Of a stretch of 32,000 nt of DNA, positions 7,259 through 24,748 are shown piece by piece (within the stretch, counting starts at the first letter, position 1; each line of letters starts with the position of its first letter). The stretch covers positions 4,920,001-4,952,000 of the forward strand of contig CP126532.1 of the NCBI GenBank assembly GCA_030167145.1, read 5' to 3'. The notes beneath the pieces were generated by a model, which saw only the letters and a program-made list of their open reading frames with translations, made no database searches and was not told the DNA's origin. The DNA comes from Ktedonobacterales bacterium (GTDB lineage Bacteria; Chloroflexota; Ktedonobacteria; Ktedonobacterales; JADMIN01). The translations under genes and the position numbers were made by a program.

Positions 7259-8743
7259 TCATTCCCCTTTGCTCTTGCCCTTGTCCAGCGCCACGCGGCT
7301 GTGCTTCTCGCCGTTGTAGCTGAGACGCACGGCTTGCTCCTCCAAGATGGTTTCGAGGTGAACGGGACGAGACCAGATATACTGGACATATTCCAGCGTC
7401 TTCTGGGCGTAGGATAGATCCAGGTCCTGGCCCTCATGCTGATGGTGCAGTACCAGTTCCGTATTGCCATTGAAATCGGCATCCACCACGGTGATGTAGG
7501 GATAGCCAAAGTTCGTCATGCTGGCGACGAGGCCATCGCGGACTTTTTCCCAGTTCTTTTCGACGATGACCCACTCATCCTCTTCTTTGCGATACAGATA
7601 GAGGTCCAGTTCTTCGACCAGTTCCTTGGTCAGGTAGTTCCGTAGCAGCGAGACATCGCTCTCGGTCTCGCGCACGGCGAAGAGCTTCTCGCGTCCCTTG
7701 CCAGGCTCGCGCCCCAGCTTGACACGCTCCTCTTCCGTCGGGTTGTCCCAGCGGCGCTCAATGTCTTGCAGGATGTGGTAGCCAAGGTGATATGGATTGA
7801 CGCGCATGCGCTGCGGCGCGAGCACCCCGGAGTGCATTTGCGCGAATGCGGCGAATTCGCCATCGGAGAGGTCTAGCTCACGCATCGTGCGTGCATGCCA
7901 ATAGCTGGCCCAGCCTTCGTTTGCTACCTTGGTTTGCATCTGCGGCACGAAGTACTGCATCTCCTCGCGCACGATCATCAGGATGTCGCGCTGCCACTCT
8001 TCGAGATTCGGAGCGTATTGCGCCAGGAACAGCAAGAGGTCTTTTTGTGGCTGGGCAGGGAAGCGGCGGCGGCGGGTGCGCATCCACGCCTGAATGTCCT
8101 CGTCGCGCTTCCGCGCGGCCCGCTCCGCCAGACTCCACAAGTCATCGTATGGCGAGTCAGCGTGCTTCTTGGGTTCATTGTCTTGCTGTGGTGTCGCGCT
8201 TTCGGGCTTGATGCGGAAGTTGGGATCAATGTGCTCTTCGATAGCCAGGACCGCGTCGAGGAAACGTTCAACTGCCGCCTGACCGTGATCGAACTCATAC
8301 TTGCGGATGCGGTCGGCGTTCACGCTGACCTTGTCAATCATGTTGCCGGACGTGTGCTTGAAGTAGGCGTTGTGCTTGAAGAAATCGGTATGTCCGAGGA
8401 CGTGTGCTACCACCACCTTGTTCTGAAGCAGGTCGTTCTGCTCCATGAGAAAGGCGTAGGATGGATTGGTATTGACCACCAATTCGTAAATCTTGCTCAA
8501 GCCATAGTCATATTCGGTCTTCATTCGGTAGTAGGCTTTGCCGCGCGACCAGTGGCTGAAACGTCCGGGCAGACCATAGGAGCCAAACTCATACATGATG
8601 GTAGCTGGGACGAGTTCAAAATTGGTTGGATAGGGGTCAAGTCCGAAGCGCTGGGCAATTTCCCAGATGCGCTCGACGGCGCGTTCCAGTTCCGCGACAT
8701 ACCGCTCATCGTATGTGAGATTGGTATTGGGGTCAGCAGTCAT
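7259..8743 (-). CDS. spoVR: SpoVR/YcgB family protein
   Basis: Full-length similarity to the SpoVR family (VVAHVLGHTDFFKHN, NEGWASYWH, LAPQRMRVNPYHLGY). ATG 8743 is preceded by GGAAGGTGA. The track start at 8752 is a GTG inside the SD. Confidence 0.9.
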   Translation of the reverse strand: MTADPNTNLTYDERYVAELERAVERIWEIAQRFGLDPYPTNFELVPATIMYEFGSYGLPGRFSHWSRGKAYYRMKTEYDYGLSKIYELVVNTNPSYAFLMEQNDLLQNKVVVAHVLGHTDFFKHNAYFKHTSGNMIDKVSVNADRIRKYEFDHGQAAVERFLDAVLAIEEHIDPNFRIKPESATPQQDNEPKKHADSPYDDLWSLAERAARKRDEDIQAWMRTRRRRFPAQPQKDLLLFLAQYAPNLEEWQRDILMIVREEMQYFVPQMQTKVANEGWASYWHARTMRELDLSDGEFAAFAQMHSGVLAPQRMRVNPYHLGYHILQDIERRWDNPTEEERVKLGREPGKGREKLFAVRETESDVSLLRNYLTKELVEELDLYLYRKEEDEWVIVEKNWEKVRDGLVASMTNFGYPYITVVDADFNGNTELVLHHQHEGQDLDLSYAQKTLEYVQYIWSRPVHLETILEEQAVRLSYNGEKHSRVALDKGKSKGE

Positions 8744-10155: not shown

Positions 10156-12063
10156 CTAGCGATTCAGTAGCGAGCCGACATACTTGAGCAACTCATTGGC
10201 GCAGACGGGGCAGTAGCCGTGATCCGCTATCAACCGGCTGACCACCTCGTTCGACTTCTTGAGCTGCTCCGCGTCCGGTGTCTTGCTGGACGTGGTGATC
10301 TTCACCACATCGCGCAGGTCGGCGAAGAGCTTCTTCTCAATCGCCTCTTTCAGACGCTCGTGGCTGGTGTAGTCAAAGGCCTGACCACGGCGAGCGAGCG
10401 AAGAAATGCGGATCAAGATCTCCTCGCGGAAGGGCTTCTTCGCATTTTCGGTGATGCCGATCTGCTCTTCGATGGAACGCATCAACTGTTCGTCAGGTTC
10501 CATGTCCTCATCGGTGATGGGATCGCGCACCTTCGTCTTGTTGCAATAGGCTTCGACATTGTCAAGGTAGTTGTTGAGCAATGTCCGCGCCGACTCCTCG
10601 AAGGAGTAGACGAAAGCCCGCTGCACCTCTTTCTTCGCCAATTCGTCGTATTCTTTGCGCACCTCGCTGATGAAGTTGAGATAGCGCTCGCGCTCTTCGC
10701 GGGTGATGCCGGTGTGCTGATCGAGGCCATCGCGCAGCGCCCGTAGCGCATCAATTGGGTTGATGCAGGTGACGTGCTCGCGCACCAGCGCGCTGGAGAG
10801 CCGGTTGATGACGTAACGCGGCGAGATGCCATCCATCCCCTCGCGAAGCGTTTCCTCTTGCAGTTCTTTGATATCCTTCTGCTTGAACTCTTCGAGGTCT
10901 TCGCCATCATAGAGCTTGAGCTTCTTCATCAAGCTCATGCCCGCCTTCTTCGAGCCTTCCAGCCGCGACAGGATGGCGAACATGCTGGCGACGCGCAAGG
11001 TGTATGGCGCGATATGCACATCTTTGAGCGAGCTTTGGCCCAGCAACTTCTCGTAGATTTTGACCTCGTCGGTGACGCGCAGGTTGTACGGCACCTTCAC
11101 CAGAATGATGCGGTCTTGCAGGGCTTCCGACTTGCGATTGCCGACAAACGCCTGGTACTCGTTCTCATTGGTGTGGCTGACGATCACCTCATCGGCGTAG
11201 ATCATCGAGAAGCGCCCGGTCTTGATGTTCTGCTCTTGCGAGAGCGTCAGCAGCACATACAAAAAGCGCTCGTCCACTTTGAGCATTTCGACGAATTCCA
11301 TCAGCCCGCGGTTGGCGATATTGAGTTCGCCATCGAAGCGGTAGGCGCGTGGGTCGCTTTCCACGCCGACTTCGCCAATGGTGGAGAGGTCAATACCACC
11401 TACTAGCTCGCTGATGTCCTGGCTCTTCGGGTCAGACGGCGTAAAGGTGCCGATGCCATTGCGGTGTTTCTCGCTGAACACCATCCGCTTGACGGGCACA
11501 GATTCGATTTTGCCGTCATACTTGTTATCCAGGAGCCACCGGCACTGTGGGCAGAGGTCGCCCTCGATATACAGGCCGAACTCGCTCTCGATATCGCCGC
11601 GCAACTCATTGGGGATCAGATGCAGCGGCTCTTCGTGCATTGGGCATTCTTTGATCGCATACGCGGCTCCGCCGCTCACATCGCTGCGGGTATATTCTTC
11701 CAACCCACGCTTGAGCAAGCTTACAATGGAAGACTTGCCGCCGCCTACCGGCCCCATGAGCAAGAGGATGCGCTTGCGCACTTCGAGGCGCTGCGCGGCG
11801 GAGTGGAAATACTCGACGATTTGCTGGAGTGGCTTCTCCAGGCCGAAGATTTCGCTGTCGAAGAACTTGTAACGCTGATCGCCAAGTCGGTTGGTTTCGG
11901 CGCCAGCAGCCACGATCATGTTATAAATGCGTTCGTGTGAAAGTTGAGACACCGATGGCTGACGTGTGACGATCTCGAAATACTGCCCGAATGTGCCTTC
12001 CCACGACAGCGCCCGCTCGCGTTCCCGATACTCTTCAAGCCGCTTGACCAGATCCATACCCAT
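10156..12063 (-). CDS. prkA: PrkA family serine protein kinase (AAA+ / kinase-like)
   Basis: The N-terminus MDLVKRLEEYRERERALSWEGTFGQYFEIV aligns to the Bacillus PrkA N-terminus. A Walker A motif is present (MGPVGGGKSS). Start is ATG 12063 or 12057, with GGGAAGAGAG upstream. The track start at 12087 lacks an SD. Confidence 0.92.
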   Translation of the reverse strand: MGMDLVKRLEEYRERERALSWEGTFGQYFEIVTRQPSVSQLSHERIYNMIVAAGAETNRLGDQRYKFFDSEIFGLEKPLQQIVEYFHSAAQRLEVRKRILLLMGPVGGGKSSIVSLLKRGLEEYTRSDVSGGAAYAIKECPMHEEPLHLIPNELRGDIESEFGLYIEGDLCPQCRWLLDNKYDGKIESVPVKRMVFSEKHRNGIGTFTPSDPKSQDISELVGGIDLSTIGEVGVESDPRAYRFDGELNIANRGLMEFVEMLKVDERFLYVLLTLSQEQNIKTGRFSMIYADEVIVSHTNENEYQAFVGNRKSEALQDRIILVKVPYNLRVTDEVKIYEKLLGQSSLKDVHIAPYTLRVASMFAILSRLEGSKKAGMSLMKKLKLYDGEDLEEFKQKDIKELQEETLREGMDGISPRYVINRLSSALVREHVTCINPIDALRALRDGLDQHTGITREERERYLNFISEVRKEYDELAKKEVQRAFVYSFEESARTLLNNYLDNVEAYCNKTKVRDPITDEDMEPDEQLMRSIEEQIGITENAKKPFREEILIRISSLARRGQAFDYTSHERLKEAIEKKLFADLRDVVKITTSSKTPDAEQLKKSNEVVSRLIADHGYCPVCANELLKYVGSLLNR

Positions 12064-21244: not shown

Positions 21245-21375
21245 GGTGTCACCCCCTCTATCCTCCCGCGCGGATACGTCTCGTTGACGTGCGCCACCAG
21301 TGTACACGAGCGGCGGGCGAAATGGTAGGGCGAGGGTGATGAGGACCCATGTTCTGCGTCCCTCCGCACAGCTTC

Positions 21376-21448
21376 CATACATCCGCACAGCTTCCATACA
21401 TCCGCACCTCATGGAGGTGCGTGCCTATGGAGACGTTGCGGATGTATG
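21376..21448. repeat. left 73-bp four-site palindromic module (12-7-12-11-12-7-12)
   Basis: The four sites are CATACATCCGCA (21376-87), CATACATCCGCA (21395-406), TGCGTGCCTATG (21418-29) and TGCGGATGTATG (21437-48). The first two sit in a 19-bp tandem repeat (CATACATCCGCACAGCTTC, 2.7 copies starting at about 21362). The whole folds as an imperfect long hairpin centred on GCACCTC-ATG-GAGGTGC. Confidence 0.85.
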
Positions 21449-21491: not shown

Positions 21492-23771
21492 CTAGGATGT
21501 CTTCGCCGCACTTTCCGCGACAGGATTGCCGGGCAGCGACAGATACCATGCCCCAGCCCTTCCAAACCCGCGCTGCTCTTTGACGACGGCGAGTTCTTTT
21601 CGCGCCCGCTCCAGTGTTCCATCGCTGATACCCCATGCAGTCGCCTCCGCCAGGACTTCCTTGGCGCTGCGTGGCCCATCCGCCAGCGTTTCGCGCAAGA
21701 ATGCCCTCGCCTGCCCCCGTTTGCTCTCGTCGTCGTTGCCCGCTTCCATCTGCGCGCGCAGGAGCGTATCGGCGCTGAGCGTGACGGCGCCACGCCACTC
21801 GATATGCGGCGCCTCCTCACCCTCCTGTGCATCCTCGGCAGCATCGGCATCCTCGGCAGCATCGGGCGGGGGCGCGCTCACCACCGCATAGCGCCAGGAG
21901 GGCGGGGGCGCGCCCAGGTTGCTCTTGGTGCTGGCCAGGATGCGCTCGTGTTCCGGGTCGTCGGGCGACTTCGCCACCAGCAGCCCCGACCGCGCCGCGC
22001 CGATGATGCCAATCGAGCCGCCGCCGCGATACAGTGCGTTCGCGCCGCCGCCTTTGGTCAGGTGTCGCACCACCACCACAGCGATGCCCAATGCTTCGGC
22101 CATCTGGTTCAGCGGGGCCAGCGCCGCACGTATATCCTGGTCGCGCCACGAGTTCACCCCGCCATCCAGGTACGCCATCAAGGGGTCAATCACCAGCAGC
22201 TTCGCCCCCACGCGCCGGATCTCGCGTTTCAGCCGCGCGATGTCGGTTGGCAGGGTCCAACTGCGCTCGATAACACGCCCACTCACCGGATCGCGCAGGC
22301 GCAGTGTACGCGGCGCGACAATCCGCGTCACATCCGCGCCCGCCGCCTCCAAACGCGGGCGAATCGTGCTGGCCAGGTCGTCTTCGGCGGAGAGCAGCAC
22401 CACCCCCGCTGGCTCGGTCAACCCGACCGTGCCATCGGGCATCGCGCGCCCCGTCGTCACCCGCGCCGCCAGATCGAGCGCCACCAGCGATTTGCCAAGC
22501 CCAGGGTCGCCATCCATCACGGTCAGCTTGCCCAGCGGGATGCGCCCCGGCCACAGCCAGCGCAGCTCCTCCGCCGCCACCTCCGAGACCAGCGGACTCA
22601 CCACATACACGCCGTCGTCCTCGGCTTCGGCATCGGCGTCCGCGCCGACAGACAAGAATGTCTGTCCTACCTGTATCTGCTCAGTGGGGCGGACATTCCT
22701 GTCTGCCTGCTCTCCATGCGCCAGCCCCAACCACGCGCGCACCTGCGCCACAATGCCCGCACCGACAGACACGAATGTCTGTCCTACCTGTGGGGCGGAC
22801 ATTCCTGTCTGCCCGCCACGCAGCCGCTCGGCCAGCCCATGCGCGCCCAGCACCGGCTCGCCGCGTCGCAGCCGCTCGGCGGTGTGTTCCGCCTTGCCAC
22901 CGCGCGCGCGCCACTCCTCATCGCCCGCCACCCGCGCCACCACCCGCACGAACTGATCGGTCTCTGGCACCGACCAGCCGCCCCGCAGCAGCAGGCCGGT
23001 CAGTGCCAGCGCCGCCTCATCGCGGCTGCCCACCCCCGGCCAGTGCCGCGCCAAGAGCGCCGCCGCCGCCACTTTCGCCACCGCCCGCCGCAGCGCCGCG
23101 CCGTCTATCGTCGCCGGGTCGCCGTCCTGCTCCCAGCGCACCCGATCGCCGCTGGGATGCAGCGAGGGCGGGGCCAGCGTCTGGCAGCCGGTGGAGCGCA
23201 GCTCGACGAGCATCGTCTGGTGGCCCACCTCTCCCCCCAGCCCCCTCCCCGGCGCAGGGAGGGGGCGTGCTAGCTCCCCTTCCCTGGTCGGGCCGCGCGG
23301 TGCTAGCTCCCCTTCCCTGGTCGGGAGGGGGTTGGGGGGTAGGTGCTCCCCCATCCAGGCGAACTTGCATGTCAGCGGGGGCAGCCCCTCCTCCGCCGCC
23401 TCGACCTCGCGTTCGACCACATACCAATAGTGGCTGCGTGGCGCGCCCTTGCGCCCCGAAATGCGCGCGGTCGGCGGCAGCAGCGCGGCAGCGGCGTCGG
23501 CGGCCTCCGGCGCATCACAATCCACCTCCACCAACCCGCCGCTTGGCCCGCCCAAGAGCAGCCCCAGGTTGTGCGCCTTCGCGCCCCCCGCGAACCAGCG
23601 CGGTAGCTCTTCGGGAATGAAGCGGGTCTGCGTCCACTTGGCCTGCGCCGGAATCTTCGTGCCGGGCCGCAGCGGAATCACCCGCCAGCCCCACGCCGCA
23701 TACGCCAGCGCCGCCGCCAGCGGGTCGGTCGCGCGCAGCGGCTGCATCCCTGCTGTGTCCTTCGTCTCCAT
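21492..23771 (-). CDS. bifunctional primase-polymerase (PrimPol) / RepA-like AAA_25 helicase / C-terminal wHTH replication protein
   Basis: The N-terminus has PrimPol motifs: AAWGWRVIPLRPGTKIP, the DxD motif LVEVDCD, SGRKGAPRSHYWY and ELRSTGCQTLAPPSLHPSG. The centre has Walker A (DGDPGLGKS), Walker B (LLVIDPL) and VVVVRHLTKGG. The C-terminus is HTH-like (AKEVLAEATAWGISDGTLERARKEL). The ORF is continuous and carries several repeat-derived inserts. Confidence 0.85.
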   Translation of the reverse strand: METKDTAGMQPLRATDPLAAALAYAAWGWRVIPLRPGTKIPAQAKWTQTRFIPEELPRWFAGGAKAHNLGLLLGGPSGGLVEVDCDAPEAADAAAALLPPTARISGRKGAPRSHYWYVVEREVEAAEEGLPPLTCKFAWMGEHLPPNPLPTREGELAPRGPTREGELARPLPAPGRGLGGEVGHQTMLVELRSTGCQTLAPPSLHPSGDRVRWEQDGDPATIDGAALRRAVAKVAAAALLARHWPGVGSRDEAALALTGLLLRGGWSVPETDQFVRVVARVAGDEEWRARGGKAEHTAERLRRGEPVLGAHGLAERLRGGQTGMSAPQVGQTFVSVGAGIVAQVRAWLGLAHGEQADRNVRPTEQIQVGQTFLSVGADADAEAEDDGVYVVSPLVSEVAAEELRWLWPGRIPLGKLTVMDGDPGLGKSLVALDLAARVTTGRAMPDGTVGLTEPAGVVLLSAEDDLASTIRPRLEAAGADVTRIVAPRTLRLRDPVSGRVIERSWTLPTDIARLKREIRRVGAKLLVIDPLMAYLDGGVNSWRDQDIRAALAPLNQMAEALGIAVVVVRHLTKGGGANALYRGGGSIGIIGAARSGLLVAKSPDDPEHERILASTKSNLGAPPPSWRYAVVSAPPPDAAEDADAAEDAQEGEEAPHIEWRGAVTLSADTLLRAQMEAGNDDESKRGQARAFLRETLADGPRSAKEVLAEATAWGISDGTLERARKELAVVKEQRGFGRAGAWYLSLPGNPVAESAAKTS
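21829..21864. repeat. perfect 18-bp tandem duplication inside the replicase gene
   Basis: gcatcctcggcagcatcg occurs twice (21829-46, 21847-64). It is in-frame and encodes DAAEDADAAEDA. Confidence 0.9.
22647..22707. repeat. composite hairpin repeat, copy 1 (hairpin A + hairpin B)
   Basis: Hairpin A is GACAGACA-AGAA-TGTCTGTC (22647-66), followed by CTACCTGT and then an 11-nt insert. Hairpin B is GGCGGACA-TTCC-TGTCTGCC (22688-707). It lies inside the replicase CDS. Confidence 0.85.
22764..22814. repeat. composite hairpin repeat, copy 2
   Basis: Hairpin A is GACAGACA-CGAA-TGTCTGTC (22764-83), followed by CTACCTGT and then hairpin B, GGGGCGGACATTCCTGTCTGCCC (22792-814). It is near-identical to copy 1 but lacks the 11-nt insert. 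Confidence 0.85.
23241..23343. repeat. cluster of G/C-rich palindromic repeats inside the PrimPol domain
   Basis: There is a 9-bp stem, CCCCCTCCC (23241-49) with GGGAGGGGG (23257-65). A 26-bp direct repeat gtgctagctccccttccctggtcggg occurs at 23267-92 and 23300-25, with a 33-nt period. The terminal unit is CTCCCCTTCCCTGGTCGGGAGGGGGTTGGGGGGTAGG (23307-43). Confidence 0.85.
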
Positions 23772-23825
23772 GGCTCATTCCTTCCCCTCACCCAGTCCAC
23801 CCAGTCCACCCATTTCGCGCCCAGT

Positions 23826-23848
23826 GGGGCGGACATTCTTGTCTGCCC
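23826..23848. repeat. hairpin B, copy 3 (intergenic)
   Basis: GGGGCGGACATTCTTGTCTGCCC lies between the small ORF stop (23884) and the replicase start (23771). It is flanked by a 9-nt tandem CCAGTCCAC x2 (23792-23809). Confidence 0.8.
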
Positions 23849-23883
23849 GCCCCCTGCTCGCCTCATGTACTCCGGCAGCCTCC

Positions 23884-24363
23884 CTACGGTGCGCGCAGCC
23901 GTGGACCTTGCATCGAGACGAACAGCTTTTGATCCTTGTCGGAAATCTTGACCATGTCCAAGATGAAGGTGAAATCGCTGAAGTCCGACCACTCATCCCC
24001 TGCTTCGAGCGCCTCAAGCTCCACGCTTGGCTCGGCCCACCCCCGCGGGCCAGCCTTCGGGGGCGTGTAACGGTGCAGCATGAGATTCACCACAGATATC
24101 CTCTTCGTGCTCGGCCCCTGGCGCGAGAGCAGTAGCGCACGCAACGTCACCGCATATGCCATCTCCGCCGCCTCGCGTGCGATCTGCTCCATCCACGGCA
24201 ACACCTCGCGCTTCGCCAGCACCGGCGCCACCCGCGAGTATTCGCTCTTGTACAGATCTCGCCAGGTCGCGCGATGGCGGGGCGGTTTCCCTTTCGCCTG
24301 TGCCCGCCCGCTGCGCTCACGTTGTTGGTTTCGCTCGTCTCGCTCGTCTTGCTCGTTTCGCAT
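23884..24363 (-). CDS. hypothetical 159-aa protein, first gene of the replicase cassette
   Basis: ATG 24363 (MRNEQDERDERNQQRER...) is preceded by AGGAG with 9-nt spacing. It has a charged N-terminus and then a helical region. The track start at 24531 would read through repeat copy Y. No family recognised. Confidence 0.55.
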   Translation of the reverse strand: MRNEQDERDERNQQRERSGRAQAKGKPPRHRATWRDLYKSEYSRVAPVLAKREVLPWMEQIAREAAEMAYAVTLRALLLSRQGPSTKRISVVNLMLHRYTPPKAGPRGWAEPSVELEALEAGDEWSDFSDFTFILDMVKISDKDQKLFVSMQGPRLRAP

Positions 24364-24407
24364 CGCCGTCCACTCCTGTCTCTCACTGGCCCACGCGCGG
24401 CTCTGCT

Positions 24408-24444
24408 CTCCCCTGCCCTCGTAGGGAAGGGGCCGGGGGTTAGG
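24408..24444. repeat. G/C-rich palindromic repeat, dispersed copy
   Basis: CTCCCCTGCCCTCGTAGGGAAGGGGCCGGGGGTTAGG is about 80% identical to 23307-23343. It lies in the predicted 5' leader of the small ORF. Confidence 0.75.
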
Positions 24445-24574
24445 TTCCTCCCGAAAACGACAAAGCGCCGCCCCATCCCCGCAAGAGCCAGGCAGGTAGG
24501 GGCGCATGCCATGCGCCCGCCAGGCCAGCAAGGGATAGAGCGGCGCCTATACTCAGGCTCACCGCGCAAACTTC

Positions 24575-24604: not shown

Positions 24605-24633
24605 AGTATAGAACATATTTTCTATTATTTCAA
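24605..24633 (-). promoter_or_regulatory. near-consensus sigma70 promoter in an AT-rich island, driving the small ORF/replicase cassette
   Basis: Minus strand reads TTGAAA (24633-24628), a 17-nt spacer (taatagaaaatatgttc), then TATACT (24610-24605). It is embedded in the most AT-rich ~40 bp of the window. Confidence 0.55.
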
Positions 24634-24675
24634 GTGTGCCCTGGCCATCCGATCAATTTCTGCCCTCGGACACCC

Positions 24676-24748
24676 CATAGGTCCGCAACATCCTCATAGA
24701 CCCGCATGCAGTTGAGATGCGGACCTATGGGGTGGATGCGGACCTATG
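24676..24748. repeat. right 73-bp four-site palindromic module (12-7-12-11-12-7-12)
   Basis: The four sites are CATAGGTCCGCA (24676-87), CATAGACCCGCA (24695-706), TGCGGACCTATG (24718-29) and TGCGGACCTATG (24737-48). The spacing is identical to the left module, and it aligns with the reverse complement of 21361-21455, including the outer TATGGAAG. Confidence 0.85.

Follow-up and report, generated by a model that had tools for sequence, protein, structure and literature searches.

Paired four-site palindromic arrays around a primase–helicase gene in a Ktedonobacterales chromosome as candidate Rep-binding origin sites

The window analysed here, a 32,000-nucleotide stretch of a Ktedonobacterales chromosome, contains an array of four short sites at 24676–24748 (no strand assigned), and the locus raises the question of what these sites are for. 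A second array, likewise with no strand assigned, lies at 21376–21448, and a primase–helicase gene, rep, lies between the two. In our reading the right module is probably one of two arrays for the winged helix of the Rep protein and, with the left module, provides the origin sites of a replication cassette derived from a phage or a phage satellite. We infer Rep binding, action as an origin and the reason for two arrays from comparative evidence only. Most likely, phage satellites and small plasmids already offer examples of this kind of site, and its layout in a Ktedonobacterales chromosome is new.

Geometry and sequence of the two arrays

The right array is composed of two forward sites, CATAGGTCCGCA (24676–24687) and CATAGACCCGCA (24695–24706), and two reverse sites that both read TGCGGACCTATG (24718–24729 and 24737–24748). 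The sites and their spacers of 7, 11 and 7 bp are exactly as a first-pass annotation of this DNA had described them, and the 43 bp it gave between module and promoter was measured as 42–43 bp upstream of the cassette −35 element (TTGAAA at 24633..24628, minus strand). On its other side the array lies 42 bp past the stop of an NHL/thioredoxin gene. The left array has the same geometry (spacers 7/11/7; sites at 21376–21387, 21395–21406, 21418–21429 and 21437–21448), carries CATACATCCGCA at three sites and CATAGGCACGCA at one (21418–21429), and starts 44 bp past the rep stop codon. Both arrays thus consist of two direct 12-bp sites, an 11-bp centre and two inverted sites, and the start-to-start distance from left to right is exactly 3300 bp.

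The left array is directly preceded by a degenerate third direct unit (21357..21375, plus strand; CGTCCCTCCGCA followed by CAGCTTC), which is identical to the 19-bp repeat at 16 of 19 positions. Further out, TGAGGACCCATG at 21340–21351, 24 bp left of the array, has two mismatches to the right-module site TGCGGACCTATG and may be a decayed extra site. The 11-bp centres, CCTCATGGAGG and TGCAGTTGAGA, are 45–64% GC, and no AT-rich unwinding stretch was found inside either window array. An AT-rich patch occurs near the right array only and is the cassette promoter. The flanking tetramer that had been described as facing outward, CTTC/GAAG, is present, but it flanks three of the eight sites of the two modules, others as well as outermost ones.

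With up to one mismatch allowed, the consensus CATA[CG][AG][TC]CCGCA was matched eight times in the 32-kb window against 1.5 expected. None of 100 shuffles reached eight, and all eight matches fall inside the two modules. In 2.4 Mb of other, unrelated loci, CATANNNCCGCA occurred at chance (13 seen, about 15 expected).

The pairwise alignment against shuffles that the first-pass annotation had proposed placed the resemblance of the two modules far above chance: the local alignment score was 24–25 compared with 8.1 ± 1.5 for shuffled sequence (z 11.5), and none of 2000 dinucleotide shuffles reached it. The right module matches the reverse complement of the left at 49 of 73 positions, as the earlier estimate of about two-thirds identity had it, but the direct orientation is equally good with 47 of 73 (64–67% in all). 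The best other 73-mer of the window scored 35/73. The self-complementarity of the modules is 54/73 and 52/73; each being palindromic, direct and inverted alignments are equivalent and an orientation as "inverted ends" is not assignable. It is the sites that carry the identity between the modules (40/48); the spacers match no better than chance (7–9/25). This argues that neither module is a recent copy of the other and that only the sites have been conserved. The claim of functional sites without a recent duplication is borne out by this pattern and by the recurrence of the geometry around every close homologue. The four-site palindromic block is real, and the evidence supports sites that are selected and functional, the putative function being read from sequence comparison.

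A further claim, that each end keeps a site "flavour" of its own by coordinate change, was not supported. The left site at 21418–21429 (CATAGGCACGCA) is of the right flavour plus one mismatch, so the flavours are not cleanly module-specific, and in a permutation test of grouping by module in the window 5 of 35 splits were as good or better (p = 0.14). The difference (CAT versus GGT/GAC/GGC) lies in the centre of the site, which tolerates variation. When all sites from ten related elements were aligned, the central 3–4 positions varied within nine of the ten elements (1–4 central positions within an element), and the 4–5 bp on each side were nearly invariant. Permutation tests gave no significant module-specific flavour in any relative, and such a flavour was ruled out as a family trait. 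The arrays of one relative, L004, have centre flavours of the same kind as the window (GGCG/GGCA versus ATGC).

Signs of local repetition are seen in the identical 19-bp units of the left module, its decayed third unit and the 15-bp units of the right module. The identical 19-bp and 15-bp units point to local slippage or conversion; selection for distinct site specificities is not indicated. The flavour would then be drift in a centre that is not read, made uniform locally through slippage or conversion among adjacent repeats.

The cassette between the arrays and its surroundings

The arrays enclose no genes other than rep and ORF159, and no transposase or integrase gene was found in the cassette. 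The rep gene (21492..23771, minus strand) encodes a 759-aa protein in which Pfam detected a Prim-Pol domain (PF09250, residues 21–220, E = 9e-23) and an AAA_25/RepA-like helicase (residues 400–575, E = 2e-34). The nearest solved relatives of the helicase part are RadA; it matches AAA_25 and is not a superfamily 3 helicase of the D5/P4-alpha type. PHROG matches were to phage primase/polymerase and primase/helicase families. The winged-helix segment (21534..21734, minus strand; about residues 680–746) is the proposed reader of the sites. AlphaFold modelled the last 109 residues of Rep as a winged helix (pLDDT 86) with H-H-H-strand-strand topology, and the top Foldseek matches of this C-terminal model were the DNA-binding domains of PadR, ArsR and MarR.

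ORF159 (23884..24363, minus strand; 159 codons) lies between the promoter and rep. Its GC content by codon position (0.66/0.46/0.77) shows a coding-like GC3 pattern. No Pfam or PHROG match was obtained for it, and no homologue among the related loci or in 1.84 billion representative proteins. ORFs of about 150 aa that precede rep at the same position in L004, L248 and L249 gave no convincing alignment with ORF159.

The cassette promoter (24605..24633, minus strand) is near-consensus, TTGAAA-17-TATACT, and its spacer holds a LexA-type box, GAACATATTTTC, at 24611–24622. The box (GAAAATATGTTC) has one mismatch to GAAC-N4-GTTC, which is the Gram-positive-type LexA box (PMC3323433). The motif count in the window alone was at chance (7 against 9.2 expected), so that the case for the box rests on conservation across relatives. 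GAAC-N4-GTTC with 0–1 mismatches was found between −35 and −10 in ten of ten related rep promoters, those of the window and of L003 (4821), L004 (4168), L005 (4631), L006 (4723), L007 (4215), L010 (4293), L027 (4744), L083 (4510) and L085 (1229). This suggests that the primase–helicase is SOS-induced through the LexA-type box.

A dif/Xer site was considered at 24614–24635 (CATAT-TTTCTA-TTATTTCAAGT), the only dif-like match of the window, with two mismatches to a generic Xer-site consensus. It was rejected: it coincides with the AT-rich promoter, is not conserved in the relatives and is probably coincidental.

REP-like hairpin repeats of the GACAGACAnGAATGTCTGTC and GGCAGACAGGAATGTCCGCC types occur at 22644–22670, 22684–22740, 22764–22783, 22790–22846 and 23824–23880. 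They stand twice in frame in the linker that joins the Prim-Pol domain of rep to the helicase domain, where they encode GQTF(V/L)SVGA peptides; this linker is the place of the first site array in the relatives. The copy at 23824–23880 lies between ORF159 and rep. A G+C-rich short repeat containing CCCTGCCCTCGTAGGGAAGGGGCCGGGGGTTAGG, at about 24396–24447, recurs in L003, L006, L007, L008, L010 and L027. It was found in both orientations among Ktedonobacterales loci and has the look of a dispersed REP-like element.

The cassette is flanked by Ktedonobacterales housekeeping genes, with NHL/thioredoxin, MTA phosphorylase and kinase genes on one side and a membrane-protein gene, gltX, aspS and serS on the other. 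The modules sit at the outermost limits of the non-host DNA: 42 bp separate the right one from the NHL stop codon, and 131 bp the left one from the start of the membrane-protein gene. No target-site duplication is visible beside the arrays, and no empty site was available for comparison: for the membrane-protein gene a single relative was found, on a contig of 1.4 kb, and the closest NHL orthologues (73–75% identity) are not syntenic. No integrase or structural genes were found within 10 kb. With excision and packaging genes absent, the cassette is solitary and the sites could be relics, although the rep ORF is intact.

GC skew was analysed over about 38 kb (1906–38570 in window coordinates, with L250). 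It switches sharply from plus to minus at the cassette, at about 21.2–26.4 kb, independently of gene orientation and resolved to about 5 kb only. Measured at third positions on the plus strand, 10 of 11 genes left of the cassette show positive skew, against 11 of 13 with negative skew on its right. At other cassettes the switch is weak or absent and inconsistent. It may mark the terminus of the chromosome or the breakpoint of an inversion, or it may have arisen by chance. Because the polarity is that of a terminus and not of an origin, the skew gives no sign that the cassette origin drives chromosome replication.

Arrays in related elements and the candidate reader

Homologous loci were found by a profile scan; a genome scan with the single protein had given no match. 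Homologues about 50% identical to the window Rep occur in Ktedonobacterales MAGs and metagenomes, and every close homologue examined carries arrays (L003–L008, L010, L083–L085, L088 and L249). These again comprise two direct and two inverted sites, with a period of 18–20 bp and a 9–13-bp centre. The site is 12–14 bp long and its sequence is element-specific: CGAAGnnCGCCAA in L003 and L010, GCAAGnnnnCCAT in L004, CCATAGGnGCTCA in L005, CAGTTnTGGCCAA in L006, CCAAGnnGCTCAT in L007, CTCAAGnnGGCCA in L083, CCAGTTTTGCCC in L085, CCATGnnTGCCCT in L084 and CATnnnTGCCCAT in L249. Scanning each site consensus against each locus gave a strongly diagonal matrix.

Most close relatives have two arrays, and in L088 one was found. 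One array always lies just past the winged-helix segment, either inside the ORF, where it is placed ahead of a Cys-rich tail, or at most 48 bp beyond the stop. The second usually lies 1.1–1.3 kb upstream within the same ORF, in the Prim-Pol/helicase linker. Arrays inside the rep ORF are found in L003, L005, L006, L007, L083, L085 and L249. L004, like the window, has no linker array; its arrays (7426–7497 and 11199–11271) bracket a 1133-aa N6_Mtase/Type_ISP_C gene, the second lying 3.8 kb downstream, beyond this N6-methyltransferase gene. An array upstream of the promoter was seen in none of the nine relatives with a mapped promoter, and the position of the right array is unique to the window. 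No low-GC patch was found at the arrays of the relatives.

The ORFs of L003, L005, L006, L010, L083 and L085 continue past the second array into the conserved Cys-rich tail (…RCPVTGxPHEYAxxRDxxGRxxCVEC…). The window Rep has no such tail and stops 44 bp before the left array.

Among 174 more distant loci (Planctomycetota, Acidobacteriota, Firmicutes and viral contigs), clusters of direct-plus-inverted repeats were concentrated at the 3′ end of the gene; in the interval from +2.0 to +3.0 kb, counted from the gene start, their density was about nine times that of the flanks. In some of these loci, for example L029 and L017, an AT-rich centre is flanked on both sides by several iterons.

A Terminase_6N-type gene (terminase-large-subunit-like) follows rep in L248 and L249, and also in L004, L027 and L083. 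In the islands of L248 (9577–15038) and L249 (7382–13064), TIR_2-domain genes lie between rep and this gene, and host genes follow downstream of the islands. No integrase, portal or capsid genes were found near the rep and terminase-like genes of the relatives, and the neighbourhood may be an integrase-less satellite-like island. L006, L007 and L060 come from one MAG, so that several cassettes per genome are possible.

ORF159 is absent from array-bearing relatives. It was therefore ruled out as a family-wide binder of the sites, and the conserved candidate reader is the winged helix of Rep. Two pairs of syntenic elements with different sites, L006/L010 and L003/L085, bear on this assignment. 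Their nucleotide identity is 65–72% over the Prim-Pol and helicase segments, 36–45% at both arrays and 49–51% over the winged-helix segment, and it recovers in the C-terminal tail. In L003/L010, which share a common site, identity of 79–88% is kept at the arrays and the winged-helix region. The co-variation is suggestive of the predicted co-evolution of reader and site; it falls short of proof, since a winged helix that generally evolves more quickly than the enzymatic domains would give a similar picture.

A mechanism consistent with these observations can be proposed. Each 12–13-bp site would be bipartite, with yCATA, three unread bases and CCGCA, and would bind one winged helix. The two sites per side face the 11-bp centre, and two Rep assemblies could thereby be loaded head-to-head. 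The RepA-like helicase would open the DNA, the fused Prim-Pol would prime, and the host polymerase would take over. Rep would be made only on release of the LexA-type box in the promoter, i.e. after DNA damage.

Alternative roles and known replicons

The arrays may instead be regulatory, an unlikely reading although one compatible with an origin. Rep or another factor at the right module would then act as an operator or UAS, and the left module would serve looping or handcuffing. The short distance from the right array to the −35 element fits this role, as does the bracketing of the operon by two arrays; P1 repA and F repE are flanked by iteron sets. Nevertheless, the right array does not overlap the rep promoter, the arrays of the promoter-mapped relatives lie in or after the gene (0/9 upstream), and the conserved promoter element is the LexA-type box. 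Moreover, the cassette differs from iteron plasmids of the P1/F type, whose origin iterons overlap the rep promoter and allow autorepression, in this separation of array and promoter and in the absence of a Rep_3-type initiator, for which Pfam gave no match in the cassette.

It is quite unlikely that the modules function as hairpins, either recognised by the primase in a folded strand (as with ssiA/ssiB of RSF1010) or acting as U-less terminators or insulators after the NHL gene and rep. Both do form two-tier folds as DNA, at about −24 (left, −24.1) and −27 kcal/mol (z −6.3 and −7.6), the arrays of the relatives fold likewise, and each module follows closely on the 3′ end of a gene, on the transcribed strand. 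In RSF1010, RepB′ priming uses two 40-nt inverted repeats (PMC8567376). However, a hairpin needs neither direct copies nor a sequence common to both modules, yet the sequence is shared in every element. A protein site present in repeats, on the other hand, should show identical direct copies inside a module, and these copies support Rep sites. The 7-nt spacers never pair, and divergence of the array sequence goes along with a conserved Prim-Pol domain. Most relatives have their arrays within the rep ORF, and a terminator at such a position would truncate the transcript. No site resembling a terminator was found in the window, and no Rfam family was matched, only sub-threshold look-alikes of microRNA hairpins.

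A quite improbable extension is a free-standing chromosomal initiator triggered by damage. Rep would load at its own arrays and start or block replication in situ, and the position at the skew switch would be functional (a restart origin or a fork trap at the terminus) and no mere by-product of a decaying prophage. The rep, TIR-domain and terminase-like genes of the relatives would then define an integrase-less satellite family of Chloroflexota.

That the modules are element ends is very unlikely. They would be terminal repeats or recombination sites, or one origin of a 3.4-kb circle split by an integrating crossover. Their place at the very edges of the non-host DNA agrees with this, as do the L004 arrays that bracket a cargo methyltransferase. 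The cassette carries no transposase or integrase, no target duplication is visible beside the arrays, and palindromic modules define no polarity. The term "ends", used in the first-pass annotation, is not supported in the transposon sense: the relatives mostly carry both arrays within rep, one in the domain linker and one past the winged-helix segment.

In Bacillus subtilis, RTP arrests forks at inverted Ter sites next to rtp. A replication fork trap formed by opposed winged-helix site pairs would suit the orientation-independent, terminus-polarity skew switch, but it is extremely improbable given that the host switch is resolved to about 5 kb only, other cassettes mostly have no such switch, several cassettes can occur in one genome and the arrays track rep and not a terminator protein.

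Taken as origin sites for Rep, the arrays can be compared with those of known replicons. In SaPI, the C-terminal winged helix of Rep recognises iterons that lie directly 3′ of its own gene, two or more per side and oppositely oriented, and SaPI/PICI initiators are self-loading helicases, sometimes fused to a primase, with repeats of island-specific sequence (PMC9371898). The window is alike in the repeats directly downstream of rep (the left array), in the two forward and two reverse sites of both arrays, in a predicted C-terminal winged helix and in element-specific sites. Binding of Rep to its own repeats is a prediction from these element-specific sites and from the co-variation of the arrays with the winged-helix segment. 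SaPI sites are 5–6 bp long around an AT-rich centre, whereas those of the window are 12–13 bp, bipartite and arranged around an 11-bp centre that is not AT-rich. The window also differs in having two separate arrays, an AEP Prim-Pol and an AAA_25/RepA-like helicase (as assigned by Pfam), and in having no integrase or packaging genes.

The origin of the Sulfolobus plasmid pRN1 is a stem-loop of about 100 bp that lies 3′ of a gene for a Prim-Pol–helicase–winged-helix protein and works when displaced (PMC4234260). Replication depends on this palindromic element, whose sequence shows little conservation among relatives and which has similar counterparts in some phages (PMC4234260, PMC2777425). Like ORF904 of pRN1, the window Rep combines Prim-Pol (PF09250), helicase and winged helix in one polypeptide, and the left array is a long palindromic stem-loop 3′ of rep. 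Unlike the window, pRN1 has a superfamily 3 helicase (P4-alpha/D5 type) and no iterons recognised in its stem-loop; discrete repeated sites, a second array and predicted bacterial SOS control distinguish the window.

The alpha protein of phage P4 needs two separated cis sites, ori and crr, that bear the same repeats. It is a primase–helicase–winged-helix fusion with the same domain order (PMC2777425). In contrast to the window, its primase is DnaG-type, its helicase is SF3, each repeat is an octamer, and neither ori nor crr is a palindromic 2+2 array. In ori-lambda, the repeats bound by O lie within the linker of gene O and change with the DNA-binding domain among related phages. Most relatives of the cassette likewise carry repeats (period about 19 bp) in the interdomain linker of the initiator gene. 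However, lambda O is neither a helicase nor a primase, all four of its repeats have the same direction, and both window arrays are outside the gene. Site II of SV40 large T and the papillomavirus E1 origin have four short sites in two opposed pairs that load two helicase hexamers head-to-head. The 2+2 arrangement is shared with the window; the differences are that these viruses infect eukaryotes, that their sites are pentanucleotides and that their DNA-binding domain is unrelated.

The locus carries a warning for annotation, in that palindromic repeat blocks around a gene are not necessarily transposon ends. If Rep loads at the arrays, they would constitute a compact, sequence-defined origin of four bipartite sites with no AT-rich core. 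The conserved LexA-type box would tie this replication module to the SOS response. The Prim-Pol/RepA-like/winged-helix initiators form a widespread, unstudied family in Chloroflexota, Planctomycetota, Acidobacteriota and their phages, and the many pairings of site and domain found in nature could be a source from which to derive a recognition code of winged helices or orthogonal replicons for organisms without genetic tools.
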